Shown here in pieces: positions 1 through 22,993 of a DNA stretch of 24,000 nt. Where the stretch lies: assembly GCF_048300925.1 (NCBI RefSeq), contig NZ_CP133759.1. One strand, 5' to 3'. The notes below the pieces were generated by a model, which did not search any database, was not told the origin of the DNA, and saw only the letters and a program-made list of their open reading frames with translations. The position numbers and the translations under genes were made by a program. Source of the DNA: Thermithiobacillus tepidarius DSM 3134. Its GTDB lineage: Bacteria > Pseudomonadota > Gammaproteobacteria > Acidithiobacillales > Thermithiobacillaceae. Within the stretch, counting starts at the first letter, position 1. Each line of letters starts with the position of its first letter.

Positions 1-896
1 GCCGCGCACAGCACGCGCTCAAGCAGGCGCTGATCAACCCGGAACCGCTGGATCTCAGCGGGCTGGACTTCGCGGACGTGCGGCCCAGCGCCGCCGGCCC
101 GGCCGGCGCCGCGTCCGGCGATCTGGCCCTGATCCGGGGTGAAGGGCGGCTGCGGGGCACGCTGGCGCCGCTGGAGGCGCAGGCGCTGCGCGCCCATCTG
201 TCGCCCATCGAAATCGCCCACATCCATCTGGAACTCGATGACCCGGGCAGCGCCATCGACATCTTGCGGCGCGGCACCCTCTTCGAGCCGCGCAAGCTGG
301 CCTACCACGTCGAGCTCTTGAAGGTTCTCTACCAGCAGCAGCGGCTCGAAGCCTATGCGGAGGCGCTGCTGTCCCTGTACCTGACCCTGTGGGGCGCCGG
401 GCAGAGCCTGCGCCAGCGCCTGCTCGACCTCGGCTTCCGCCTGGGCCGCCACCCCCTGCTCGAACACCTGCTGGACGTGGATGCCGGCGAAGGCGATCTG
501 GCCCTGCTCGCCAATGCCTGGGGCCTGCATGTGCCGCTGGCTGCCATCCCCTTCAGCAATCCGCCGCTGGTCGAGGAGCGCCTGCGGACGCAGATCAGCA
601 TGGTGGGCAGCGACAGCGACGATCGCATCCTGCAGGAGTTCGACCAATTGCTGGAGTTCGGCCAAGTGGAAGAGGCCATCGACCACCTGGAAAGCGCAGT
701 CCACACCAGCCCGCAGGAAGGCCTGTACTATCTTCCGCTGATGGAAATGTACGAGCGCATGGGCGACCTGAACCGCTTTACCCGCTTTACGGAAAGCATC
801 CTGCACGGAGAGCAGCTGCCTCCGGAAGACACCCTCCGGCTCATGATTGAAGTTGGCGATCGCTTAAAGGGCCAAACCAGTAGACGCGCTGTTTGA
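1..896 (+). CDS. Helical TPR-like repeat protein, 5' end cut by the window edge
   Basis: Frame 3 is open from base 3 to TGA at 894-896, with no stop upstream of the listed GTG at 78. GC3 bias is strong. The sequence is all-helical and repeat-like (e.g. LEFGQVEEAIDHLESAVHTSPQEGLYYLPLMEMYERMGDLNRF). Its stop overlaps the GAGG Shine-Dalgarno (SD) sequence of the next gene. Confidence 0.6.
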   Translation, partial: RAQHALKQALINPEPLDLSGLDFADVRPSAAGPAGAASGDLALIRGEGRLRGTLAPLEAQALRAHLSPIEIAHIHLELDDPGSAIDILRRGTLFEPRKLAYHVELLKVLYQQQRLEAYAEALLSLYLTLWGAGQSLRQRLLDLGFRLGRHPLLEHLLDVDAGEGDLALLANAWGLHVPLAAIPFSNPPLVEERLRTQISMVGSDSDDRILQEFDQLLEFGQVEEAIDHLESAVHTSPQEGLYYLPLMEMYERMGDLNRFTRFTESILHGEQLPPEDTLRLMIEVGDRLKGQTSRRAV

Positions 897-903
897 GGTA
901 TTC

Positions 904-2121
904 ATGACCATTACGCCCTTCCCCACCCGTGAAATCCTCGTGCTGACCGTCGGCATGGACACGCGCAAGCAGGCCGTGTTCCGCATGGCTTTCAAGATGT
1001 ACAGCAAGGCCCAGTACCGGCTGCTGGAGCCCGGCGAGAGTCAACGTCCGCAACTGGCCATCGTCGATATCGACGGGCCCGACGGCATCGGCCTGTGGGA
1101 TCAGTTCCGCGCCGAGCATCCTGAGCTGCCCGCCCTCATCGTGTCGGTGCACCCGGTGGACAACTCGCCGGTGCCGGTACTGCAAAAGCCGGTGCGCATG
1201 GAAAACCTCTTTCCGCAACTGGAGGCCCTGCGCAGCGGCAGGCCGACCGGCGCCCCCCCCGCCGCGCCGATCCAGATCCGGCAGGCCGGTGCCGCCCCGG
1301 CGGCCAGCACTCCGCAGCCTGCGGTCGCGCCTACGGCCAGCCGGCCTGGCGCGAGCGCACCGGCCGCGGGTGGTCCTGCGACGCCGGAGGCAGCTCCGGG
1401 AGCCAACCGGCCCGCGGCCCCTGCCAGCAGCGCCATCTCCGAGCGCTTGGCCGTGGGCATCCGGCCGGAGGACGTGGAATACTTCGATCCGCGGCAAGGC
1501 CTGTTCGGTCTGCTGCAAATGATCCGGCGGGATCGCATTCCCGCCACGGTGGTGGATGCCGGCGGCCGGAAGCTGATGATCGTCCATCCCGAGGAGAACG
1601 AAGTGCGCCTGCTGGTAGCAGAAGAGTCCCTGCAGCAGGCCGCCCGCCGCGAGCAGGATCAGTTCCGGGCCCGCACGCCGCAGGCCGGCGACGAGGACGG
1701 CAGCGGGGCCCTGCGGCAGCTCACCTTCATGGCGCTGCTGTGGCAGGTGGCCATCTGGAGTGCCAACGGCCGCCTCATGAAAACCCTGCCGCTCAATATG
1801 CCCGTGCAGCTCAAGCACTGGCCCAACCTGACGCGCCTGGCCCCCATACCCAACGCCCTGCGCATGGCCGCCTTCCTTGTGCGCTCGCCGGCGCACCCGG
1901 TCCTGATGGCCAAGATGCTGCAGGTGGCTCCGGCCGACATCTTCAACTTTCTGGCCGCCGCGCATAGCCTGGATCTGCTGCAGCTCCCCCAGGCCCGGCC
2001 AGCCACCGAGCGGAGCGAGAGCATGGCCCCGCCCCCGGCCCAGCCGCAGGCCGCGCCGGCCGCCGCCAAGCCGCAGCAGGGCTTCCTGAACCGCTTGCTG
2101 AGGAAAATCGCCGGCCTGTAG
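904..2121 (+). CDS. Receiver-like (degenerate REC) protein with Pro/Ala-rich linker, unknown C-terminal domain and C-terminal amphipathic helix
   Basis: ATG at 904 lies 5 nt after GAGGT. The N-terminal ~110 aa has a CheY-like beta/alpha pattern: ILVLTVGMD / LAIVDIDGPDG / ALIVSVH / VLQKPV with the K-P pair. The acidic DD pair after strand 1 is missing. Residues ~110-175 are low-complexity P/A-rich. The protein ends in QGFLNRLLRKIAGL. Confidence 0.7.
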   Translation: MTITPFPTREILVLTVGMDTRKQAVFRMAFKMYSKAQYRLLEPGESQRPQLAIVDIDGPDGIGLWDQFRAEHPELPALIVSVHPVDNSPVPVLQKPVRMENLFPQLEALRSGRPTGAPPAAPIQIRQAGAAPAASTPQPAVAPTASRPGASAPAAGGPATPEAAPGANRPAAPASSAISERLAVGIRPEDVEYFDPRQGLFGLLQMIRRDRIPATVVDAGGRKLMIVHPEENEVRLLVAEESLQQAARREQDQFRARTPQAGDEDGSGALRQLTFMALLWQVAIWSANGRLMKTLPLNMPVQLKHWPNLTRLAPIPNALRMAAFLVRSPAHPVLMAKMLQVAPADIFNFLAAAHSLDLLQLPQARPATERSESMAPPPAQPQAAPAAAKPQQGFLNRLLRKIAGL

Positions 2122-2193
2122 CGGGCTGCGCCGTCACGTACAAGGAGTGCGCCGGCCGCGTGCCGGCCGGATCATCCACAAGGAGAGCAGGAC

Positions 2194-2733
2194 TTGAGAC
2201 AGGACAACAAAATCATCTTTACCGGCCCGGTGGGCGCCGGAAAGACGACCGCCATCGCGGCCATCAGCGACACGGCTCCGGTCAAGACCGACGCGGCGGC
2301 CTCGGACATGACCCTGAACCGCAAGGGCTACACCACCGTCGCCATGGATTACGGCGTGCTCCGCCTGGATGAACAGACCAAAGTGCACCTGTACGGCACG
2401 CCGGGGCAGGAGCGCTTCGACTTCATGTGGGACATCCTGACCAAGGGCGGGCTGGGCCTGGTGCTGATGCTGGACAATACCCGCAAGAACCCGCACAAGG
2501 ATCTGCATTTCTTCCTGAATGCCTTCAAGGACTTCATCGAGCACGTGCCGGTGGTCATCGGGGTGACCAAAACGGACCTGAGCGCTTCCCCCAGCATTAC
2601 CGAATACGCCGAAGCGCTGAGCCAGAAGGGCATGCGCCCACCCATCTTCGAAGTCGACGGCCGCAGCCGCGAGGACGTCAAGAACCTGGTGATGGCATTG
2701 CTCTTTTCCATTGACCCCGGTCTAGAAGGCTAA
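2194..2733 (+). CDS. Small Ras-superfamily GTPase, MglA/CvnD-like
   Basis: TTG start at 2194 is 8 nt after AGGAG (2181-2185). G1 is GPVGAGKT. G3 is LYGTPGQERF, which lacks the Ras Asp. G4 is TKTD. TTVAMDYG...GTPGQERFDFMWD...GLVLMLD matches my memory of conservon CvnD-type GTPases. Confidence 0.85.
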   Translation: MRQDNKIIFTGPVGAGKTTAIAAISDTAPVKTDAAASDMTLNRKGYTTVAMDYGVLRLDEQTKVHLYGTPGQERFDFMWDILTKGGLGLVLMLDNTRKNPHKDLHFFLNAFKDFIEHVPVVIGVTKTDLSASPSITEYAEALSQKGMRPPIFEVDGRSREDVKNLVMALLFSIDPGLEG

Positions 2734-2735
2734 GC

Positions 2736-3371
2736 ATGGCAGTTGAACTCACCCTGGCCGGCGAGCTGTACGCCCAGGCTACCCCCGCCGGCGCCTTTTA
2801 CGCCGTAGCCAGTCCCCAGCCCGACAACAGCCGGCAGACCCTGCTGAGCATCCTGCGCCACGGCGAACACAGCCCGCTCAGCGACGGCCAGGTGCTGGAG
2901 TGGACCGGAGCCGACAGCGTCGAGGACGGTTTGAAGGTATTGTTCCGCCTGCAGCGCCTGGGACTGGTGCGCGGCGTCGAAACTCCCATGCCCGCCCCCC
3001 AGGAGCGCCTGGAGGACGTGCTCCCGGCCCTGATCGGCCGTCTTTCGGACAAGGGCAAGGCGGTGCTGGCGGACGACAACGGTTTCTATCTTGCGGCCAG
3101 CGGCTACCCCCACGAAGCCGCGGAAGAGCTGGCCGGCTTGGCCGGCGACCTGCTGGCCCTGCACGCGCGCCATGGCCGCCTGCTGAAGAACAACCTGAAG
3201 CTGGCCACCGAGGCCTGGGCCCTGGTGGACCCGGCCGGCCGCTCCGAACTCGGCTTCTGGCCGCTGTACATCGGCAAGCAGAATTTCGTGCTCATCATCG
3301 GCGAGACGCCGCGGCTGCAGAATCAGGAATTCGTCACCCTGATCCAGGCGCTGAACAACCGCTATGCCTGA
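2736..3371 (+). CDS. Hypothetical protein; C-terminal half Roadblock/LC7-like, N-terminal half possibly winged-helix-like
   Basis: ATG at 2736 is 2 nt after the GTPase stop, with AGAAGG 6 nt upstream. Residues ~95-211 follow a helix-strand-strand-helix-strand-strand-helix order (LEDVLPALIGRL / KAVLADDNGFYLAASG / EAAEELAGLAGDLLAL / AWALVDP...LGFWPLYIG / NFVLIIGE / EFVTLIQALNNR). The fold assignment is inferred, not demonstrated. Confidence 0.65.
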   Translation: MAVELTLAGELYAQATPAGAFYAVASPQPDNSRQTLLSILRHGEHSPLSDGQVLEWTGADSVEDGLKVLFRLQRLGLVRGVETPMPAPQERLEDVLPALIGRLSDKGKAVLADDNGFYLAASGYPHEAAEELAGLAGDLLALHARHGRLLKNNLKLATEAWALVDPAGRSELGFWPLYIGKQNFVLIIGETPRLQNQEFVTLIQALNNRYA

Positions 3372-3409
3372 GCGAAACCCGGTGCCGTGGTCGAGCCTCC
3401 GACTTTGGG

Positions 3410-3438
3410 CTGACCATTTCAGAAATATCGACTACACT
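3410..3438 (+). promoter_or_regulatory. Possible internal sigma70-type promoter (CTGACC-N17-TACACT) ahead of the Roadblock gene
   Basis: Hexamers at 3410-3415 and 3433-3438 have a 17-nt spacer. They lie in the only long, AT-richer gap of the cluster (3372-3487). Confidence 0.3.
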
Positions 3439-3447
3439 GTATTTCAT

Positions 3448-3466
3448 TCGATCCCGAAAGGATCGA
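3448..3466 (+). promoter_or_regulatory. Stem-loop TCGATCC-CGAAA-GGATCGA in the leader of the Roadblock gene
   Basis: Perfect 7-bp inverted repeat with a 5-nt loop, read directly. Each arm holds a GATC. It lies ~20 nt upstream of GGAG (3477-3480) and ATG 3488. No U-tract follows, so it is not a typical terminator. Confidence 0.4.
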
Positions 3467-3487
3467 GATTTGCCTTGGAGATGCAAC

Positions 3488-3850
3488 ATGCGTGAACAGA
3501 TGCTCAAATCCGTCCTCGGTGACCTGAACGGCGCTTCCGCTGATGTCGAGGCCTCGGCGGTCATTTCAACGGACGGACTCACCATCGCCTCGATGCTCTC
3601 GGCCGGGATGGACGAGGATCGGGTCGGCGCCATGTCCGCCGCCATGCTGTCCCTGGGCGACCGGACGGCGGCCGAACTGAGCCGGGGGGAACTGGAACAG
3701 GTGATGGTCAAGGGCGAGAACGGCTACATCCTGCTCATCCATGCAGGCAAGGACGCCGTCCTGACGGTGATCGCCCGCAAGGAAGCCAAGCTGGGCTTGG
3801 TGTTCCTGGATGCCAAGCGCGCCGCCAACAGCATCGCCGAGCTGCTCTGA
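3488..3850 (+). CDS. Roadblock/LC7 domain protein (MglB/CvnB-like)
   Basis: ATG at 3488 is 7 nt after GGAG. The 120-aa product shows the typical Robl_LC7 pattern (VEASAVISTDGLTIAS...DEDRVGAMSAAMLSLGDRTAAEL..GELEQVMVKGENGYILLIHAGKDAVLTVIARKEAKLGLVFLD). The listed ORF start at 2900 is an out-of-frame overlap artefact. Confidence 0.9.
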   Translation: MREQMLKSVLGDLNGASADVEASAVISTDGLTIASMLSAGMDEDRVGAMSAAMLSLGDRTAAELSRGELEQVMVKGENGYILLIHAGKDAVLTVIARKEAKLGLVFLDAKRAANSIAELL

Positions 3851-5351: not shown

Positions 5352-5822
5352 CTAACTTTGCGGCGGCAGCACCTGGGCTTCGCCGCCGGTCTTGGCGTCA
5401 ATGGACAGCTGCGTGATGCCGGAGTCCACCTTCTTCAGGCTGCGCGCGGGCGTTACCGTCACCGGCAACCCATCGCGGTAGGCCTTGTTGATGTCGACCG
5501 GACTGATCATGGTCTGGCCGTCATCCCGCACCTGCTCCGTGGCCACGAAGGCGGGGTGATTGGGATTGATGGGCGATTTCTGGTTGCCCGTGTTCAACAC
5601 GGCCGTGACGTCCGAGGTGGCGGTGCCGCCCGCCGCCGCCTTGGCCAGCTCGGATTTCACCGTGCTGATGGCCAGATTGAAGTTGCTCTTCAATTCCGCG
5701 GCGGCGGCGCGATCGGGCTCGTCCGGCTGCTTGAAATAATAATCCAAAGCGAAGACCAAGACACCGATCAAGGTGCCGATGATGATGAGCGTCCAGGCGG
5801 AAACGGTTTTCTTCACAGCCAT
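5352..5822 (-). CDS. Hypothetical protein with a single N-terminal membrane anchor
   Basis: ATG at 5822 is 7 nt after AAGGAG. The N-terminal TM helix is WTLIIIGTLIGVLVFALDYYF, followed by a soluble Ala/Thr-rich domain. The stop lies 12 nt before the rimO start. I recognise no family. Confidence 0.7.
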   Translation of the reverse strand: MAVKKTVSAWTLIIIGTLIGVLVFALDYYFKQPDEPDRAAAAELKSNFNLAISTVKSELAKAAAGGTATSDVTAVLNTGNQKSPINPNHPAFVATEQVRDDGQTMISPVDINKAYRDGLPVTVTPARSLKKVDSGITQLSIDAKTGGEAQVLPPQS

Positions 5823-6897: not shown

Positions 6898-8975
6898 GCG
6901 TGCGCGATCTCATCCTGGAAATCGGCTGCGAGGAAATCCCGGCCAAGGACCAGCAGCCGCTGGCCCGGGCCCTGGGCGAAAGCCTGCTGGCCGCCCTCGG
7001 CGAGGCGCAGATCGCCGCCGGCGAGTGCCGGACCTTCGCCGCCCCGCGGCGCCTGGCCGTGCTCCTGCGCCACGTGGCCGGCGAGCAGGCGGCACGCGAG
7101 CTGATCAAGCGCGGCCCGGCCGTGGATCGCGCCTTCGATGCCGCCGGCAACCCCACGCCGGCATTGCAGGGCTTTGCCCGCGCCAACGGCGTGGAGGTGA
7201 CGCAGCTGGAGCGCATGGCCCTCGACAAGGGCGAGTTCCTGGTCTACCGGCAGGTGGAAGCGGGCCGCCCCACCGCGCAGGTGCTGCCGGAGCTCATTGC
7301 CCAGGTCGTCAGCCGCCTGCCGTTGCGCAAGCGCATGCGCTGGGGCAGTTCGCAGGCCAGCTTCGTGCGTCCGGTGCAGTGGCTGCTCGCCCGCTTTGGC
7401 GAGGAGGTGCTGCCGTTGCACTGCTTCGAGCTGACAGCCGGCGGCGTCAGCTACGGCCACCGGGTGACGCACCCGCAGGCGGTCGCCGTGACCGAACCCG
7501 CCGATTATGCCGCCTGCCTGCTGGAAGCCAAGGTCATGGCCGACTTCGACGCCCGGCGCGCGCGCATCGGCGAGGAGGTGCGCCGCCTGGCCGCCGAGCT
7601 GGGCGGGGTGGCCCTCATGCCCGAGACCCTGCTGGACGAGGTCACCGGCCTGGTGGAATGGCCGGTGGTGCTGGCGGGCGCCTTCGAGGAAGCCTATCTG
7701 GCCATCCCGCCGGAGGTGCTGACCACGGTGATGATTCAGCACCAGCGCTACTTCCCCGTGCTGCGCGAGGCCGGCGGCAAGGCGCTGCTGAACCGCTTCA
7801 TCTTCGTCGCCAACCTGGAAAGCCGCGACCCGGCCGCGGTGATCCACGGCAACAGCCGCGTGCTGCGCGCCCGGCTGGCCGACGCCGACTTCTTCTGGAA
7901 CGAGGACCGCAAGCGCCCGCTGGCGGCGCGCCGGCCCGAGCTGGAGCAGGTGCTGTTCCAGCAGGGCCTGGGCAGCCTGCTGGACAAGAGCGAGCGCCTG
8001 GTGCGCCTGGCGCCCATGCTGGCGGGCGCGGTGCGGGCGGACGCGGAGGCCGTGCGGCGGGCCGCCGAGCTGTGCAAGTGCGACCTGCTCACGGGCATGG
8101 TCGGCGAGTTTCCGGAGTTGCAGGGCATCATGGGCGGCTACTACGCGCGCCATGACGGCGAAAGCGCCGCGGTGAGCGCCGCCATCGGCGGGCACTATGC
8201 GCCGGCGGGGCGCGCCGACGCCATCCCGCTGGATGCCGGCGCCCAGGCCCTGTCCCTGGCGGACAAGCTGGACACCCTGGCCGGCTTTTTCGGACTCGGC
8301 CAGATCCCGAGCGGCGACCGGGACCCCTTCGCCCTGCGCCGCGCCGCCCTCGGCATCCTGCGCATCCTGCTGGAGGGCGAAATCGTCCTGGACCTGCCGG
8401 CGGCCATCGAGGCGGCCGCGGCGGCCTACGGCAACCTCCTCGCCGGCCGCAACCCCGGCTTCGAGGCGCAGCTTTTCGATTTCTTCCTGGAGCGTCTGCG
8501 CGTCTTCTTCCGCGAGGAAGGCTTCGCGCCCGACCTCGTGGAAGCGGTGCTCAGCCTGCGCCCCGGCGATCCCCTGGATGCCCGCAGCCGCCTGGAGGCC
8601 CTGAGCCGCTTCCGCAGCCGGCCCGAAGCCGAGGCCCTGGCCGCGGCCAACAAGCGCATCGGCAACATCCTGCGCAAGGAAGGCATCACCGAAACCGGCG
8701 CGGTGCGGGTCGAGCTGCTGCGCGAGGACGCCGAAAACGCCCTGTGGACGGCCTGGCAGGCGCTGCAGGCCCCGACCGAGGCGCTGCTCGCCGTCGGCGA
8801 CTACGGCCCGGCCCTGGACCTGTTGGCCGGCCTGCGCGGGCCGGTGGACCGCTTCTTCGACGAGGTGATGGTCATGGCCGAGGACCCGGCCCTGCGCGCC
8901 AATCGCCTGGCCCTGATCGGCACCCTGCGCGGCGCTTTCCTGCGCATCGCCGATTTCTCCCTGCTGCAGGGCTAG
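6894..8975 (+). CDS. glyS: Glycine--tRNA ligase beta subunit
   Basis: ATG at 6894 overlaps the glyQ stop (ATGA). [18 protein letters not shown] is the typical GlyS N-terminus, and the product is 693 aa. The ORF-track start at 6555 is an upstream in-frame extension inside glyQ. Confidence 0.95.
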
Positions 8976-14936: not shown

Positions 14937-15785
14937 TCAAGGAGAGCCGGCACTCCAGTCCGTCGCCTTCACCGTCCGCCCGGAACGGGCGAAGATCCAG
15001 GCCAGCCCCACGCCCGCCATTAGCGCGTGCCGCTCCTCCACGAGGGGACTGTCGCGGAAGGCCGCGCCGGCCAGGCTGTCGTAGCGCACGAAGCCGCCCA
15101 GCCAGTAATCCTGCTTGAAGCGCCGGCTCAGGGTGAGGGTCAGGCGCGCGCCGCTGTAGCCGCCGGGCGCGGCATAGGCCGGGCGCGCGGCCGTGGCGAG
15201 GGCGGGAGCGACACTGTAGTAATAGTGGTGGTACTTGCTATCGGCGAAGACGGGGCCGGCTGCCAGGCCGAAGCGCCAGACGCGCCCGGGCCCTGTGTTG
15301 AGCCAGTCCATGCCTAGATGCGGCTGCGAGACCCAGCCCACGCCCTGCCAGCGGGACAGGTCCTCGGCCACGGCGACCGCCGCCCGCAGCGGAAAATTCA
15401 GCGTGAAGCGGGGCCCACGCGCAGACTGGTGCAGCAGCAATTCCACGGAAGGGCCGATCTCCAGGGTGGGGTCCAGATCGGGCATGCCGGCGCGCGGGCC
15501 GCCATCGCTGCTGCGCACCGGCGTGGCGGCGTTGGCGCTGATGTCCAGCTGCACGCGCTCGGTCTGCAGGAGCAGGCCGCGCACCTGCTGGCGGTCGATG
15601 CGCAGGACCTCGCCCCGGTAGATCACATATGGTAGAGGCAGGTAGTAATTGCGCCGCTCGCTAGCGCCGCGGTACTCGGGCAGGTTCAGCACCGCCAGCC
15701 CCGCGCCCAATTCCCAGAGCGGCAAGTCTTGCGCCGCCGACCAGCCCGGCAAGCCGAGCAGCAGCAGTGCGACGCTCAGGCGCAT
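14937..15785 (-). CDS. MipA/OmpV family outer-membrane protein
   Basis: Signal peptide MRLSVALLLLGLPGWSAAQD. MipA-like motifs include WELGAGLAV..LPEYRGA......LPLPYVIYRGE and a C-terminal YYYSV...RYDSLAG.AFRDSPLV...AGVGLAWIF. The start is uncertain: ATG 15785 gives a normal signal peptide, and ATG 15845 is an alternative. Confidence 0.8.
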   Translation of the reverse strand: MRLSVALLLLGLPGWSAAQDLPLWELGAGLAVLNLPEYRGASERRNYYLPLPYVIYRGEVLRIDRQQVRGLLLQTERVQLDISANAATPVRSSDGGPRAGMPDLDPTLEIGPSVELLLHQSARGPRFTLNFPLRAAVAVAEDLSRWQGVGWVSQPHLGMDWLNTGPGRVWRFGLAAGPVFADSKYHHYYYSVAPALATAARPAYAAPGGYSGARLTLTLSRRFKQDYWLGGFVRYDSLAGAAFRDSPLVEERHALMAGVGLAWIFARSGRTVKATDWSAGSP

Positions 15786-15915
15786 CCGGCAGCGCCGGAA
15801 GGCATCCGCGTGGCGTTCGACGACAAGGTGGATGAGCGTATTCATGACCGGCATCCCACGGCTTTGGGGCAGTATGCGCCCCCACCGGCCCGGGCGGCAA
15901 GACGCGGCTCCAGGC

Positions 15916-15944
15916 TTGCGCATCAGAGTACATAGCCATATAAC
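15916..15944 (+). promoter_or_regulatory. Putative sigma70 promoter of the PilZ gene (TTGCGC-N17-TATAAC)
   Basis: Hexamers at 15916-15921 and 15939-15944 lie in an AT-rich divergent intergenic region, ~45 nt upstream of ATG 15989. Confidence 0.4.
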
Positions 15945-15988
15945 TATCCGCTGACTCAAAAATAAAAAGAAGCGGAGTGGATGTCACG

Positions 15989-16867
15989 ATGGAACTGCAA
16001 ATCGTCTCAAGCACAGAGATCCCCCTGGGGTCTCCCCTGCCTTGGCCGCTGTACGATGGGGAAGGCAGACTGCTGCTCGACGCCGGTTTTGTCGTCGAAT
16101 GCGAATCACAACGGGATATTCTCCTCGGTCACGGCGTGTACCGGAATGCCGCCCAGGCGGCCATGGGATCGGCGGCGATCCCGGATGCGGGGGATGGCAA
16201 TGAGGACGGCCCCGGCGCGGCCTTCGAACGCATGGGCCTGCAGATGGGCACGCCCGTGCAGCTGACGGACGGCCAATCCCGCTATTTCGGCCGTCTGATC
16301 GGCTACATCCGCGACAAAAGCCTGCTGGTCTCCACTCCCATCGTGAACGGCGTGCCCCTGCTCCTGAAGGCGGGGGAGCAGTTCACGTTGCGCGCCTTCA
16401 CCGGCAAGAACGCCTACGCCTTCGACAGTGCCGTGATGCGTACCCAGAGCTTCCCCGTGCACTACCTGCACATGAGCCTGCCGCTGGACGTGCGCGAAGC
16501 CCCGCTGCGCCGGTCCGTGCGGGCGCCGGTCAAGCTCCTCGCCGCGCTCCTGCCCACCGGCGACGGCCGCTCCTGGCCCGCCCAGGTGATGGACATCGCC
16601 ACCTCGGGCGCGATGCTCGCCTCCCCCTACCCGCTGGACGACGCCGCCGGCGGCCTGAAGCTGAATCTGCCCATCCGGCTGGAGGGGACCGACTTCAACC
16701 TGAAGCTGCCCGTGGTCGTCCGCAACCGCCATCCCAAGGACCAGCACGCCTATCGCTACGGCGTGGAATTCCAGCAACTGTCCACCAGCGACCGGCTGGT
16801 GCTGCAGAACCTGGTCTACCAGACCCTCTGCGCGCAACGCGCCTACGGCGCCTTCGCCACGGGTTGA
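15989..16867 (+). CDS. PilZ domain protein with YcgR-like N-terminal domain (putative c-di-GMP receptor)
   Basis: ATG at 15989 is 11 nt after GGAG. The C-terminal domain has RRSVR (RxxxR), then ~27 aa later DIATSG, a variant of D/NxSxxG. Before it comes a beta-rich PilZN-like region (GRLIGYIRDKSLLVSTP...FTLRAF). The GTG at 15977 is an alternative start. Confidence 0.8.
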   Translation: MELQIVSSTEIPLGSPLPWPLYDGEGRLLLDAGFVVECESQRDILLGHGVYRNAAQAAMGSAAIPDAGDGNEDGPGAAFERMGLQMGTPVQLTDGQSRYFGRLIGYIRDKSLLVSTPIVNGVPLLLKAGEQFTLRAFTGKNAYAFDSAVMRTQSFPVHYLHMSLPLDVREAPLRRSVRAPVKLLAALLPTGDGRSWPAQVMDIATSGAMLASPYPLDDAAGGLKLNLPIRLEGTDFNLKLPVVVRNRHPKDQHAYRYGVEFQQLSTSDRLVLQNLVYQTLCAQRAYGAFATG

Positions 16868-19412: not shown

Positions 19413-21428
19413 CTAGCCCTTGCCGGCCAGCATCTGCCGCAGCTGGGCGATGGTGCCCTGCGCCACCGCCTGGTGCTGATCGGGGCTGGACTCATCGCCC
19501 TCCCAGCGCAGGTCTTCGGGCGGCAACTCCTCCAGAAAACGCGACGGCTCGCACTCCACCATCTCACCATAGCGCTTGCGCCGGGCGGCCAGGCTGAGGG
19601 TCAAGGTGTACTGGGCACGGGTCAGGCCGACGTAGGCCAGCCTGCGCTCCTCCTCGATGTTGTCGGTGTCGATGCTGTTGCGGTGCGGCAGGATGCCTTC
19701 TTCCATGCCGACCAGGAAGACGTGCGGAAACTCCAGGCCCTTGGCGGCGTGCAGGGTCATCAGGCGGACCTCGTCGCTGTCGCCGGCCTCGCCCTGGCGC
19801 TCCAGCACGGAAAAGAGGCTCAGGCGGTTGAGCAGCTCCGGCAGAGTTTGCGGACCGTCGTCCTGCTCGGTCATGCGCTGCATCCAGTCGAAGAGGCTGT
19901 TGACGTTTTCCATGCGGCGCAGCGCGCCGCGCTCGTCGCACTGGTCCTTGAGGTAGCCCAGATAGTCGATTTCCTCGGGCAGGCTGCGCAAGGTGGCGCA
20001 GACCTCCTGATCGGTGGCGGCGCTCTTTTCCACGCGCTCGGCCATGCGATTCACCCACTGGCCGAACTGGCGCAGGGCCTCCAGCCCGCGGGCGGGCAGG
20101 TGCTCGGCCAGGCCCTCCTCCCACACGGCGGCGAAGAGCGAGAGATCGTGCTGCTGGGCGAAGTTGCCCAGGGCTTCCAGGGTGGCGCCGCCGATGCCGC
20201 GGCGCGGCGTGTTCACGGCACGCAGAAAGGCCAGATCGTCATCGGGGTTGGCCAGCAGGCGCAGATAGGCCATCACGTCCTTGATCTCGCTGCGCTCGAA
20301 AAAGGAGGTACCGCCGGAGATCTGGTAAGGCACATGGGCGGCGCGCAGGGCGGTCTCGAAGGCGCGCGCCTGGTGGTTGCCGCGGTAGAGGATGGCGAAG
20401 TCGCCGAAGCGGGCCTTGCGCTGGAACTTCTCCGCCAGCAGCAGACTGACCACCCGCTCCGCCTCGTGCACCTCGTCCTGGCAGCGCACCACGCGGATCG
20501 GCTCGCCATGGCCCAGGGTGCTCCACAGCTGCTTTTCGTAGAGATGGGGATTGTTGGCGATCAGCCGGTTGGCGGCATTGAGAATGCGCCCCATGGAGCG
20601 GTAGTTCTGCTCCAGCTTGATCACCTGGAGTTCGGGGAAGTCCTGGCTCAGGCGGTGCAGGTTCTCGGCTTCGGCGCCGCGCCAAGCGTAGATGGACTGG
20701 TCGTCGTCGCCCACGGCGGTGAGATTGCGGCGGTTGCCGAGCAGCCACTTGATGAGCTGGTACTGGGCGCTGTTGGTGTCCTGGTACTCGTCCACCAGCA
20801 GGTAGCGGATGCGCTCCTGCCAGGTGGCGCGCGCCTCGGGATCAGTGGCGAAGAGGTGATTGGGCAGATTGATCAGATCGTCGAAGTCCACGGCGCTGTA
20901 TGCCTTCAGCGCCCGCTGGTAGAGCGGGTAGAGGCGGGCTGCGCGCTGATGCAGCGGATCGCCGTCCAGGGGCACGTCCTCCGGCATGAGACCGGCGTTC
21001 TTGAAGCGCGAGATGCGCCCTTGGATGGCCTCGGCCAGATCGCCGTCGCCGTCATGCTCCTTCAGCAGATCGCGCACCACACCGACGCTGTCGCCGGCGT
21101 CGAGAATGGAGAACACGGGCTTGTAGCCCAGGCGGTGGATCTCCTGGCGCAGGATGTTGAGGCCCAGGCTGTGGAAGGTGGAGACGATGAGGCCGCGGGT
21201 CGGCTTGCCCTGACAGAGCTGGGCCACCCGCTGCTGCATCTCGCTGGCCGCCTTGTTGGTGAAGGTCACGGCGCAGATGTGCTTGGCGGCCACTTCGTGG
21301 CGCTCGATGAGGTGGGCAATCTTGTGGGTGATGACGCGGGTTTTGCCAGACCCCGCCCCGGCCAGCACCAGCATGGGACCGTGGACGTGCGTGATGGCGG
21401 CGTGCTGCTGCGGATTCAACTCGGACAT
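19413..21428 (-). CDS. rep: ATP-dependent DNA helicase Rep (UvrD/Rep superfamily 1)
   Basis: Starts at ATG 21428. LNPQQHAAITHVHGPMLVLAGAGSGKTRVITHKIAHLI...CAVTFTNKAASEM closely follows the E. coli Rep N-terminus from memory. The product is 671 aa (E. coli Rep is ~673). The ORF-track start at 21560 extends into the upstream SDR gene. Confidence 0.88.
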   Translation of the reverse strand: MSELNPQQHAAITHVHGPMLVLAGAGSGKTRVITHKIAHLIERHEVAAKHICAVTFTNKAASEMQQRVAQLCQGKPTRGLIVSTFHSLGLNILRQEIHRLGYKPVFSILDAGDSVGVVRDLLKEHDGDGDLAEAIQGRISRFKNAGLMPEDVPLDGDPLHQRAARLYPLYQRALKAYSAVDFDDLINLPNHLFATDPEARATWQERIRYLLVDEYQDTNSAQYQLIKWLLGNRRNLTAVGDDDQSIYAWRGAEAENLHRLSQDFPELQVIKLEQNYRSMGRILNAANRLIANNPHLYEKQLWSTLGHGEPIRVVRCQDEVHEAERVVSLLLAEKFQRKARFGDFAILYRGNHQARAFETALRAAHVPYQISGGTSFFERSEIKDVMAYLRLLANPDDDLAFLRAVNTPRRGIGGATLEALGNFAQQHDLSLFAAVWEEGLAEHLPARGLEALRQFGQWVNRMAERVEKSAATDQEVCATLRSLPEEIDYLGYLKDQCDERGALRRMENVNSLFDWMQRMTEQDDGPQTLPELLNRLSLFSVLERQGEAGDSDEVRLMTLHAAKGLEFPHVFLVGMEEGILPHRNSIDTDNIEEERRLAYVGLTRAQYTLTLSLAARRKRYGEMVECEPSRFLEELPPEDLRWEGDESSPDQHQAVAQGTIAQLRQMLAGKG

Positions 21429-21444
21429 GTGCGGGTTCTTTACT

Positions 21445-22176
21445 TTAAAGGCGATGAATCTTGTCCACCCGCGCCTGGGCGGTGGGCTTGAGGACGATCT
21501 GGTCGATGTTGACGTGGGCGGGGCGGGTAGCGGCCCAAACGATGGCATCGGCCACGTCATCGGCGGTCAGCGGCTGCAGGCCCGCGTAGACCGCGGCGGC
21601 GCGCCCGGCGTCGCCGGCGAAGCGCACCAAGCTGAATTCGGTCTCCACCAGGCCGGGATCGACCTCGGTGACGCGGATGGGCTCGCCCAGCCACTCCAGC
21701 CGCATCGTCTCGCTGATGGCGCGCACGGCATGCTTGCAGGCCGTGTAGCCGGCGCCGCCGACGTAGGTCTCCAAGCCGGCGACGGAGCCGATGTTGACCA
21801 CGTGGCCGGCGCCGGAGGCACGCAGTTGCGGCAGCAGGGCCTTGCTCATACGGGCCAAGCCCAGGACGTTGCTTTGATACATGGCCAGCCACTTGGCCTC
21901 ATCCAGCTCGGCAAGGGGCTCCAGGCCCAGGGCGCCGCCGGCGTTGTTCACCAGCACGTTGAGCGCCGGCACCCGGGCGGCAAAGGCGGCCACGCTGGCC
22001 GCATCAGAGACGTCCAGCGGCAGGGCGACCGCGCCGATCTCATCGGCCAGCGCCCGCAGGCGCTCCCGGCGCCGGGCGCCGATGAACACCTGGAAGCCCG
22101 CGTCCGCCAGCTGGCGGGCGACGGCGGCGCCGATGCCGCTGGAGGCGCCGGTGACGACGGCAGTTTTCCGGGTCAT
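21445..22176 (-). CDS. Short-chain dehydrogenase/reductase (SDR) family oxidoreductase
   Basis: Contains TGASSGIG cofactor motif, NNAG, and catalytic YTACKHAV (YxxxK). Confidence 0.9.
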   Translation of the reverse strand: MTRKTAVVTGASSGIGAAVARQLADAGFQVFIGARRRERLRALADEIGAVALPLDVSDAASVAAFAARVPALNVLVNNAGGALGLEPLAELDEAKWLAMYQSNVLGLARMSKALLPQLRASGAGHVVNIGSVAGLETYVGGAGYTACKHAVRAISETMRLEWLGEPIRVTEVDPGLVETEFSLVRFAGDAGRAAAVYAGLQPLTADDVADAIVWAATRPAHVNIDQIVLKPTAQARVDKIHRL

Positions 22177-22182
22177 GGGATT

Positions 22183-22455
22183 TCAGCCAAAGCGATAGCG
22201 CTTGCGGATCGGCGCCAGCACTTCCCAGGTGCAGGACAGGCCGGCGGGAAAGGTGACCAGGTCGCCCGCCCCTACGCGCACCGGCACACCGCCATCCGGC
22301 GTGACGAGGACCTGCCCTTCCAGAATATAACAGGTCTCCTGCTCGTCATAGGTCCAGGGAAAGCGGGAGGTCTCCTTCTGCCAGACAGGCCAGCGGCCGA
22401 CACCCAGCGCTTCGAGGATTTTCTGGTCCGGATTGCTTTGCACTTGGATGGTCAT
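22183..22455 (-). CDS. Small cupin domain protein (Cupin_3/DUF861-like)
   Basis: ATG at 22455 is 5 nt after AAGGAAG. ETCYILEGQVLVTPDGG..V.VGAGDLVTFPAGLSCTWEV is the typical pattern. The ORF-track start at 22530 has no SD. Confidence 0.75.
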   Translation of the reverse strand: MTIQVQSNPDQKILEALGVGRWPVWQKETSRFPWTYDEQETCYILEGQVLVTPDGGVPVRVGAGDLVTFPAGLSCTWEVLAPIRKRYRFG

Positions 22456-22529
22456 GATCGCTTCCTTCGGACAAAGAGACGGGAATCGTGCTGGGCGTGC
22501 GGCACGGCAGGCAACGCGGATGCGGGCCA

Positions 22530-22558
22530 TTGCCCCCGTTGCGGGCGCGCTTTATGTT
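22530..22558 (+). promoter_or_regulatory. Possible sigma70 promoter of the globin gene (TTGCCC-N17-TATGTT)
   Basis: Hexamers at 22530-22535 and 22553-22558, ~30 nt upstream of ATG 22589. The match is weak. Confidence 0.3.
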
Positions 22559-22588
22559 ATGGCATTCATCGGCATCTGTGGAGGCCCC

Positions 22589-22993
22589 ATGTCCGAATCC
22601 GAACCCAAACCCGCGCTACGCAAGCTGCAGCCGCTTTGCGCCCAGATACCGCTGCCTACCATCCGGGCGGTGGTGGATGACTTCTACAACCGCATCCAGC
22701 AACACCCCACCCTGGCGGAGCCCTTCGCCGCCGTGAGCGACTGGGAGCTGCACAAGGATCGCCTGACCCACTACTGGTGGACGGTCATGGGCGGCCAGCC
22801 CTACCGCAACTACGGCTACGCTCTGGGCGACAAGCACGCGCCCGTGGGCATCACCCATGCGCTGGTGGACGACTGGCTGGCGCTCTTCTACGAGACCCTG
22901 CTCGATCACCTGGAACCGGAGCTGGCACAGCGCTGGCTGCGCCTGGCCCAGGGCATCGGCGAATCGCTGCGACTCATGTTCGCCCGAGACTAG
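22589..22993 (+). CDS. Truncated haemoglobin (bacterial-like globin family)
   Basis: ATG follows GTGGAGG. VDDFYNRIQQHP carries the TyrB10 context. HYWWTVMGGQPY and KHAPVGI (proximal His context) are also present, followed by WLALF. Confidence 0.7.
   Translation: MSESEPKPALRKLQPLCAQIPLPTIRAVVDDFYNRIQQHPTLAEPFAAVSDWELHKDRLTHYWWTVMGGQPYRNYGYALGDKHAPVGITHALVDDWLALFYETLLDHLEPELAQRWLRLAQGIGESLRLMFARD

Follow-up and report, generated by a model that had tools for sequence, protein, structure and literature searches.

The first 3,850 nucleotides (nt) of a 24,000-nt stretch of the Thermithiobacillus tepidarius DSM 3134 genome (contig NZ_CP133759.1; the whole stretch is referred to below as the window) carry five co-directional genes, encoding, in this order, a TPR-like protein, a REC-like protein, a small GTPase, a long Roadblock protein and a short Roadblock protein. 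We read this cluster, with a probability of about 0.7, as a Group 3 MglA system, chromosomal and vertically conserved in Beta- and Gammaproteobacteria and in Acidithiobacillia, in which the GTPase would serve as a switch, with the Roadblock proteins as its GTPase-activating proteins (GAPs), regulated by the products of genes 1 and 2. The first-pass annotation of this DNA, made from the sequence alone, did not recognize the cluster as a described system. This part of it has to be withdrawn, as the cluster is orthologous to the Group 3 MglA systems (Wuichet and Søgaard-Andersen, 2015, Genome Biol Evol 7:57; PMC4316618) and to the “mgl operon” of Snodgrassella (Meng et al., 2024; PMC11112851), and it belongs under this existing class and not in a new system. 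The features of the cluster are as follows (positions in the window, all on the plus strand; AF2, AlphaFold2; pLDDT, predicted local distance difference test; aa, amino acids).

1..896, + strand: gene 1, 3' part (last 297 codons), TPR-like protein; the full gene (7105-8703 in our locus record L001) begins about 700 nt to the left of the window
904..2121, + strand: gene 2, 405 aa, the “conserved protein of unknown function” of Group 3 systems
934..1236, + strand: atypical REC-like domain, gene 2 residues 11-111 (profile matches, Foldseek, alignment)
1237..1461, + strand: Pro/Ala-rich linker, gene 2 residues 112-186 (disordered, pLDDT below 50)
1462..1983, + strand: orphan C-terminal domain, gene 2 residues 187-360 (pLDDT about 96)
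2080..2118, + strand: terminal helix, gene 2 residues 393-405, GFLNRLLRKIAGL (conserved, basic, amphipathic)
2194..2733, + strand: gene 3, 179 aa, MglA-family Group 3 small GTPase (Pfam, motifs, identity contrasts)
2736..3371, + strand: gene 4, 211 aa, MglB-1-type Roadblock protein (AF2, Foldseek)
2769..2978, + strand: N-terminal domain of gene 4, residues 12-81 (extra helical domain, invariant TPAG motif)
3009..3365, + strand: divergent Roadblock domain of gene 4, residues 92-210 (AF2, Foldseek)
3372..3487, + strand: gap between genes 4 and 5 (116 nt, AT-richer, stem-loop at 3447-3467)
3488..3850, + strand: gene 5, 120 aa, canonical MglB-2-type Roadblock/LC7 protein (Pfam, PDB profile)

Assignment to the Group 3 MglA systems

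The text of the 2015 survey splits prokaryotic MglA homologues into five groups. In Groups 2-5, a Thr replaces the arginine finger of MglA, GTPGQ is common to all, and an Asp-Gly pair is typical of the coupled MglB proteins, while Groups 2 and 3 share an unusual “DAR” G5 motif and a G4 motif that is often off the [NT]KxD consensus, often without the Lys. Group 3 is described there as restricted “almost exclusively” to Beta- and Gammaproteobacteria, including Neisseria, Xanthomonas and Stenotrophomonas, and as possessing a highly conserved gene neighbourhood. This neighbourhood includes one or two coupled mglB genes, whose products fall into separate clades in the 1:2 systems, along with a protein whose N- and C-terminal regions are conserved but without Pfam families and are joined by a variable linker, Phyre2 suggesting a receiver-like N-terminus and a winged-helix-turn-helix-like C-terminus (HTH, helix-turn-helix) (Wuichet and Søgaard-Andersen, 2015). 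The mglA gene of Snodgrassella was placed in Group 3 by Meng et al. (2024), whose text defines the operon as mglA, mglB-1 and mglB-2, complemented by an orphan mglB-3, and mentions such a third, orphan mglB in almost all Group 3 genomes. No mglB paralogue of this kind is present within the 24-kb window.

The placement of the Thermithiobacillus cluster draws on motifs, synteny and identity contrasts with named relatives. The GTPase matches Pfam families ATP_bind_1 (1e-15) and Ras (2e-8), and its motifs are G1 GPVGAGKT, G2 TT47-48, G3 GTPGQ72 (GTPGQE), G4 TKTD and G5 DGR155-157, of which G1, G3 and G4, as already read in the first-pass annotation, are invariant or nearly so in the family. Across 29 homologues from Acidithiobacillia, Neisseriales and Gammaproteobacteria, with a mean column identity of 72%, the residues G1 GPVGxGKT, T47-T48, G68-T-P-G-Q72 and D155-x-R157 (DGR in the window, DAR in many) are invariant, and G4 reads TK[TM]D in most, the Lys being lost in two gammaproteobacterial loci (TRLD, TQTD). 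The closest solved relative by sequence is MglA of Myxococcus xanthus (3e-6, 31 bits), and in the alignment to it the Arg-Thr of G2 is replaced by Thr-Thr, leaving the GTPase without an intrinsic arginine finger. A search with this protein returned 6,294 matches, the best 120 of which are 66-99% identical to it, and close homologues are found in Neisseria, Snodgrassella, Chromobacterium, Aquitalea, Chromatiales, Methylomonas and Acidithiobacillus. The identities are 59-74% to the orthologues from the same module versus 32-39% to the GTPases of conservons, Thermus and Ralstonia (Group 2/5-type). One of the latter, from a Ralstonia solanacearum megaplasmid (L019, 4617-8705), is 38% identical to the window's GTPase and is situated next to hrpG, where seven genes, small or unannotated (124 aa, GTPase, 436, 135, 123, 188 and 126 aa), form a cluster that may represent another uncharacterized MglA-family neighbourhood.

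Among the Group 3 features, the window thus displays TT, GTPGQ and D[GA]R, a beta/gamma-type taxonomic range of homologues, a Pfam-less REC-like neighbour with a variable linker, and two divergent coupled Roadblock genes. Its G4 keeps the Lys (TKTD), unlike the Group 2 and 3 members that often lose it, and no defining difference from the published Group 3 was seen in the features compared. The five genes are collinear with the Snodgrassella mgl operon, whose GTPase is 66% identical. The neighbourhood of this GTPase had therefore already been described, but the family has no experimentally assigned cellular role.

As to synteny, which the first-pass annotation had proposed as a check, the order of TPR-like, REC-like, GTPase, long Roadblock and short Roadblock genes recurs in nine genera, the window included, while the genes flanking the module differ between genomes. 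The products encoded at the eight other loci are as follows, in module order.

Acidithiobacillus (L015): 509-385-188-212-120 aa
Snodgrassella (L014): 492-382-178-219-121 aa
Chromobacterium (L026): 470-355-180-210-120 aa
Sedimenticola (L007): 246-471-179-219-120 aa
Thiotrichaceae metagenome-assembled genome (L009): 238-546-180-213-120 aa
Neisseria gonorrhoeae (L016): module order present
Methylomonas (L024): module order present
Steroidobacteraceae (L025): module order present

In the gonococcal sequence NZ_CP119140.1 (L016, 2700-6550), a 2.17-Mb chromosome filed as a plasmid in PLSDB, the five genes are in order, with the REC-like, GTPase and long Roadblock genes frame-broken, either by pseudogenization or by assembly indel errors, which are indistinguishable here. 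In Gammaproteobacteria, the module is extended 3' of the short Roadblock gene by two co-directional genes, for a PAS protein of about 157 aa and a PF12974 (Phosphonate-bd) protein of about 249 aa, in Methylomonas (L024, 9082-10316), Steroidobacteraceae (L025, 9017-10248) and Sedimenticola (L007, 9135-10379). This pair, which may provide sensory input, is absent from the window's version of the module.

The conserved unit comprises five genes, of which the text of the two papers lists the last four only. Compared to that text, the new elements are the TPR-like gene 1, the receiver pocket and the tail helix of gene 2, the N-terminal domain of the MglB-1-type protein and the PAS/PF12974 extension. 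These are incremental points of anatomy, and they leave the category unchanged.

Group 3 MglA systems occur widely: at 50% identity, more than 1,600 clusters make up the gene 2 family alone. The carriers include pathogens and symbionts (Neisseria, Xanthomonas, Stenotrophomonas, Snodgrassella). Their components are extremely conserved, as exemplified by the GTPase and by the short Roadblock protein, and an experimental phenotype has been reported for only one of the components, the paralogous orphan mglB. To our knowledge, small GTPases operating with the logic of GAPs and guanine nucleotide exchange factors (GEFs) are still rare in bacteria. The parts list presented here gives handles on such a system, namely the unit of five genes, the near-intact receiver pocket, what is probably a membrane tether, and arginines that are candidates for acting in trans.

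The cluster had been seen in the first-pass annotation as mixing elements of two paradigms, MglA and the conservon. It has this appearance because Groups 2-5 share a catalytic signature and because the conservon GTPases are the sister group of Group 3; no new chimera is involved. The likeness to the conservon GTPase CvnD, noted in the first-pass annotation, is real, as genuine conservon GTPases carry the pattern TTVA[ML]DFG...GTPGQxRFxFMW, and also DAR. Compared to conservon (CvnA-D) and mfp (MfpB-E) systems of Group 2, the window's GTPase has G2, G3 and G5 in common at 32-35% identity, the Roadblock partner CvnB is related to gene 5, and the operon is tight in both. In contrast, the conservon GTPases, taken for this comparison from actinobacterial plasmids, carry an 8-residue insert before G2 and an NxF(D)-type G4, while the window's GTPase has TKTD and no insert. 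A membrane histidine kinase of the CvnA type is found in all the genuine conservons compared, whereas no kinase adjoins the module in any of the nine genera, and the DUF742 protein (CvnC/MfpC) has no counterpart in the module detectable by Pfam or by profile-profile comparison. The module also differs in having two Roadblock genes instead of one, REC-like and TPR-like partners, and a different gene order.

Group 1, represented by MglA/MglB/RomR-RomX of Myxococcus and MglA-RomR-TPR of Bdellovibrio, resembles the module in a GTPase that lacks the Ras-type Asp in G3, a Roadblock regulator, a REC protein with a Pro-rich region, a TPR partner and a possible link to type IV pili. It differs in the intrinsic arginine finger and TVPGQ (TT and GTPGQ in the window) and in gene linkage, romR being unlinked to mglA in Myxococcus and Bdellovibrio according to the survey text (Wuichet and Søgaard-Andersen, 2015), while the partners in the module form one operon. 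In addition, the C-terminal domain of gene 2 is not RomR-like, and the module is without RomX. More distant parallels are also apparent. One is the Ragulator-Rag system, in which LAMTOR2/3 heterodimers make a Roadblock pair the platform for small GTPases, with a likeness to gene 4 at the level of the fold only. Another is the three-part logic of the Group 5 PATAN-MglA-MglB systems and of a Thermus oshimai plasmid cluster (L020, 3357-7113), in which DUF4388 (PATAN), GTPase and Roadblock genes are followed by genes for a protoglobin and an EAL-domain protein; this logic is analogous, with no sequence relation between gene 2 and the Thermus PATAN protein.

The partner proteins

Gene 2 homologues of 350-480 aa are found directly upstream of the GTPase gene in every locus examined, and the family is represented by 75 word-index matches and by 1,687 clusters at 50% identity. 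The protein matches no Pfam family, and its AF2 model has a pLDDT of 82 overall and above 90 in the folded parts. The N-terminus produces profile matches to PhoP-type REC structures (1e-4) and Foldseek matches to CheY, the CikA pseudo-receiver and the N-terminal domain of CpaE (TM-score about 0.6), while Pfam Response_reg does not match it. In the alignment, D55 (CheY D57), D19 (CheY D13), D57 and K95-P96 (CheY K109-P110) are invariant and position 81 is usually Thr or Ser, with the first acidic residue (CheY D12) replaced by an invariant Met18. The phospho-acceptor pocket thus appears to be largely conserved, and the receiver-like domain is not obviously dead. The linker that follows varies in both length and composition among the homologues.

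The C-terminal domain is composed of an alpha/beta sub-domain, a WPNLTR motif and a three-helix, winged-HTH-like end in the AF2 model, with W306, P307, N308, L309, T310, R311, R320, G289 and R290 invariant. It has no match in Pfam or among PDB sequences, nor a fold match among those returned. The domain represents a large orphan family of 1,687 clusters at 50% identity, 1,153 of them below 1e-10. In the best 150 matches, it forms the C-terminal end of the protein, whose length is mostly 350-480 aa, and shorter matches are possibly fragments. Residues 318-360 form a three-helix and hairpin pattern in the AF2 model. When 16 members of the gene 2 family were compared to HTH and DNA-binding Pfam families, no match was obtained even at E<=10.

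Relationships of this domain to known GTPase partners were also considered and rejected. Nothing by hhalign connects it to the Roadblock proteins, and neither this domain nor the N-terminal domain of gene 4 is detectable as a cryptic DUF742, with probabilities below 1% in hhalign comparisons to five real DUF742 proteins taken from plasmid conservons (the tail region being compared in local mode). No signal was obtained for a relation to PATAN/DUF4388, for which one Thermus protein was compared. What gene 2 shares with DUF742 is a loose architectural analogy only, of a motif, a winged HTH, a linker and a terminal helix. A short Leu-rich helix, such as LLERILDALEKL, is also found at the end of DUF742 proteins, and the Thermus PATAN protein ends in a winged HTH, a linker and a short helix, GLLQRVLRALF, paralleling the tail of gene 2 without detectable homology.

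The tail of gene 2 conforms to the motif G(L/F)LxRLLxK(I/V)xGL across the family, and residues 394-404 are helical in the AF2 model. In Thermithiobacillus its sequence has a hydrophobic moment of 0.65, which 5% of shuffled sequences reach, and a net charge of +3. A moment of 0.65 is in the range of the membrane-targeting helices of MinD and FtsA. The tail may serve to tether the protein to the membrane or to bind a partner.

Of the two Roadblock proteins, the short one is the canonical one: gene 5 matches Pfam Robl_LC7 at 9e-17, the archaeal Roadblock structure 7f8m at 3e-24 and Streptomyces CvnB5 (3leq) at 1.7e-9, and, of the 120 residues, 55 do not vary among eight orthologues from three classes. 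Gene 4, with 410 homologue matches, was suggested in the first-pass annotation to be Roadblock-like in its C-terminal half, and the AF2 model (pLDDT 92.6, from a 44-sequence alignment) bears this out: residues 92-210 form the textbook alpha-beta-beta-alpha-beta-beta-beta-alpha Roadblock fold, and Foldseek matches this part to the Streptomyces Roadblock protein 3kye, to MglB (6hjm/6h5b) and to Ragulator subunits, the Robl_LC7 match in Pfam being sub-threshold (0.0038). The N-terminal domain of gene 4 has no match in Pfam or PDB. Apparent relatives of gene 4 in Streptacidiphilus and Oscillospiraceae, 32-43% identical over 39-65 residues, were judged likely to be chance matches. The Asp-Gly pair is present in gene 5 (STD29-G30L), gene 4 carrying the variant D113-x-x-G116, and the two proteins are strongly divergent from each other (hhalign probability below 1%).

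Gene 1 is cut by the edge of the window, the full protein being 532 aa long in gene calls on the identical contig. It has a strongly hydrophobic N-terminal transmembrane helix (residues 17-35, Kyte-Doolittle hydropathy, KD19, of 3.05) with a basic stretch after it, a low-complexity stretch, and a helical, TPR-like region with a conserved C-terminal motif, FGQVEEAIDxLE...LMEMYER. From the order of the helix and the basic stretch, most of the protein is probably located in the cytoplasm. The TPR assignment is marginal, with TPR_14 at 23.7 bits versus a cutoff of 23.5 for the fragment and at 13 bits for the full length, and with a likewise marginal match to TPR_19. The composition originally proposed for the cluster, including the Pro/Ala-rich linker and the pairing of a divergent with a canonical Roadblock protein, is right. 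The upstream genes in Acidithiobacillus (42% identity, 2e-96) and in Snodgrassella (24% identity, 2e-26) are homologous to gene 1 along its entire length, and a 470-aa gene with faint TPR matches occupies this position in Chromobacterium. In Gammaproteobacteria, a soluble short form of about 240 aa is encoded, without the transmembrane helix and with the C-terminal TPR-like motif kept. The TPR-like gene 1 belongs to the conserved unit, while it is unmentioned in the text of either the Group 3 survey or the Snodgrassella paper.

Proposed mechanism and rival explanations

The general idea of a nucleotide-dependent switch, expressed in the first-pass annotation, holds. In the mechanism we propose, by analogy with characterized relatives, the GTPase would cycle between GTP and GDP states, and the two Roadblock proteins would form a platform, likely a heteromer, that binds the GTPase and stimulates hydrolysis. 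A heteromer is suggested because genes 4 and 5 strictly co-occur and diverge from each other, and a platform or GAP role is suggested because MglB acts on MglA as its GAP (PMC3199381) and MfpD acts on MfpB. The latter pair belongs to the sister system, Group 2, in which MfpB is reported to have MfpD, a Roadblock protein, as its GAP and MfpC, a DUF742 protein of the HTH type, as its GEF (PMC11343762). Precedents for a heteromer are the pairs of Ragulator subunits, found among the fold matches of gene 4, and the interactions of MglB with MglC reported in Myxococcus. The REC-like gene 2 product would be the best candidate for a GEF, a regulator or an effector, maybe switched via its Asp55 pocket, with the basic amphipathic helix holding it at the membrane or on a partner, and the TPR-like gene 1 product would serve as a scaffold or an effector, membrane-anchored in the window's lineage. 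The membrane and scaffold roles are inferred from the transmembrane helix of gene 1 and the conserved, amphipathic and basic tail of gene 2. As the GTPase is without an intrinsic arginine finger, an arginine might be provided in trans, and we speculate that candidates are the invariant R209 and the nearly invariant R33 of gene 4, and the invariant R45, R59 and R111 of gene 5 and R290, R311 and R320 of gene 2.

Our best guess for the output, again by analogy, is type IV pili or surface-associated behaviour. According to the text of Meng et al. (2024), mutation of the orphan mglB-3 of Snodgrassella gives a colonization advantage in a non-native host and motile flares at the colony edge on soft agar, and in the transposon sequencing (Tn-seq) data cited there each of the three mglB genes is of benefit to gut colonization. 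The link to type IV pili is presented there as a hypothesis, by analogy with Myxococcus.

A number of observations weigh against this picture of the cluster. A type IV pilus gene is adjacent to the module in none of the loci examined, and the case for a pilus link consists of an analogy and of a single phenotype, that of an orphan paralogue; in the literature searched, the only Group 3 system with experimental work was that of Snodgrassella. With Met18 in place of the first acidic residue, phosphorylation of the REC-like domain may not occur. The hydrophobic moment of the tail is marginally above those of shuffled sequences, and the helix could bind a protein instead. Finally, the form of gene 1 in Gammaproteobacteria, without the transmembrane helix, indicates that membrane anchoring of gene 1 is not universal.

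Of the alternatives, one is transcriptional output, as suggested in the 2015 survey, with gene 2 encoding a DNA-binding protein of the REC plus winged-HTH type, whose promoter activity would be gated by the GTPase and the Roadblock proteins. The REC fold, confirmed by profile and by Foldseek, the Phyre2-based assignment of both domains in the survey text, and the three-helix and hairpin pattern at residues 318-360 are all in agreement with such a role, but DNA-binding winged-HTH proteins are absent from the PDB-sequence and fold matches returned, just as HTH families are from the Pfam matches of the 16 family members, and the amphipathic tail and a membrane-anchored partner point to the membrane and not to the nucleoid. 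Moreover, the HTH-type DUF742 protein of the sister system is reported to be a GEF and not a DNA binder (PMC11343762), and we consider a transcriptional role unlikely. A conservon-like phospho-signalling arrangement, in which an unlinked histidine kinase or CheA would phosphorylate Asp55 of gene 2, functionally replacing CvnA, appears possible, if doubtful. The nearly complete pocket (invariant D55, D19 and K95-P96, and the usual Thr/Ser81) argues for it, as do the PAS sensor protein of the gammaproteobacterial versions and the fact that the conservon GTPase, with G2, G3 and G5 in common, is the closest biochemically characterized relative; it is weakened by the lack of an adjacent kinase in the nine genera, by the invariant Met at the CheY Asp12 position, which removes a metal ligand, by the failure of Pfam Response_reg to recognize the domain and by the lack of a detectable DUF742 homologue.

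Several of the carrier genera are cocci or coccobacilli, with no obvious need for pole-to-pole switching, and this argues against a further alternative, that the cluster is a direct orthologue of the MglA-MglB-RomR polarity module of Myxococcus and Bdellovibrio, with gene 2 as RomR and gene 1 as SgmX or the Bdellovibrio TPR partner. The types of components are similar indeed (GTPase, Roadblock, REC plus Pro-rich, TPR), and by sequence no solved GTPase structure is closer than MglA, but this similarity is weak (31 bits), the arginine finger is replaced by Thr and TVPGQ by GTPGQ, the C-terminal domain of gene 2 is an orphan in a fixed architecture, and no RomX-like gene is present, which makes direct orthology improbable. 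A mobile anti-phage defence or stress island that contains a GTPase could be envisaged from a multi-gene cluster of mostly unannotated proteins and from a weak PADLOC match of the P-loop region to mad8 (E 0.007). However, none of six proteins has a meaningful PADLOC match, the neighbours are housekeeping genes (kdsD-lpt-rpoN, rimO, glyQS), the guanine-plus-cytosine (GC) content of 0.65-0.71 is within the range of the window, no integrase or repeat boundaries are seen, and the GTPase is 59-74% identical across three classes, suggesting long vertical conservation. The defence reading, with no support from PADLOC, is effectively refuted.

Returning to the Group 3 MglA system, we tentatively envisage, as a possibility well short of the likely, a five-component, kinase-independent, membrane-proximal G-protein machine, in which the TPR-like and REC-like proteins would act together as receptor/GEF or effector, the WPNLTR C-terminal domain with its MinD-like tail would represent a new class of GTPase regulator, the long and short Roadblock proteins would be obligate partners in a heterodimeric GAP platform resembling Ragulator, and the arginine would be provided in trans by a Roadblock protein or by gene 2.

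Locus, gene boundaries and neighbouring genes

The open reading frames (ORFs) were re-derived, all on the plus strand, at 3/78-896, 904-2121, 2194-2733, 2736-3371 and 3488-3850, and the gaps recomputed from them are 7, 72, 2 and 116 nt. The boundaries agree with the NCBI gene calls on the identical contig, and both confirm the arrangement of five co-directional genes in the first-pass annotation. Identical DNA is found in public assemblies, including contig AUIS01000022 of GCA_000423825.1, with equal gene calls. The start codon of gene 3 is TTG. Each of the genes has many homologues, and they are therefore real genes and not chance ORFs.

On the left, the module is flanked by kdsD-lptC-lptA-lptB-rpoN-hpf-ptsN-hprK on the opposite strand, and on the right by rimO (convergent) and glyQS. 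The first-pass annotation had found no kinase gene in the window, rightly so, and no histidine kinase is encoded within the 24 kb or in the 10 kb inspected to the left.

A co-directional ORF of 144 aa is located upstream of gene 1, just left of the window (L001 6569-7003), with no match in Pfam and no counterpart in the other module loci or gene maps. It was rejected as a sixth component, being unconserved elsewhere and separated from gene 1 by a promoter-like site. This site, TTGACA-16-TATGTT (L001 7000-7027), is the only sigma-70-like match in the region, and as it is situated between the 144-aa gene and gene 1, it weakly suggests gene 1 as the first gene of the operon. The stem-loop between genes 4 and 5 (L001 11254-11274) is a terminator-like match with an 8-bp stem and a weak T-run. 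As the equivalent gap is 21-58 nt in other taxa, the 116-nt gap is lineage-specific, and a role as internal promoter, attenuator or RNA-stability element is conceivable.

Elsewhere in the window, a 155-aa protein is encoded next to rimO (5352-5819, minus strand), with no Pfam match and an N-terminus that reads as hydrophobic. About 12 kb downstream of the module, and with no established link to it, are genes for a MipA (MltA-interacting) outer-membrane protein (14937-15956, minus strand) and for a YcgR-like PilZNR+PilZ protein (15977-16864, plus strand), likely a receptor for cyclic di-GMP. A UvrD/Rep helicase (19413-21557, minus strand) and a bacterial-globin/protoglobin-like protein (22433-22990, plus strand) are encoded further to the right.

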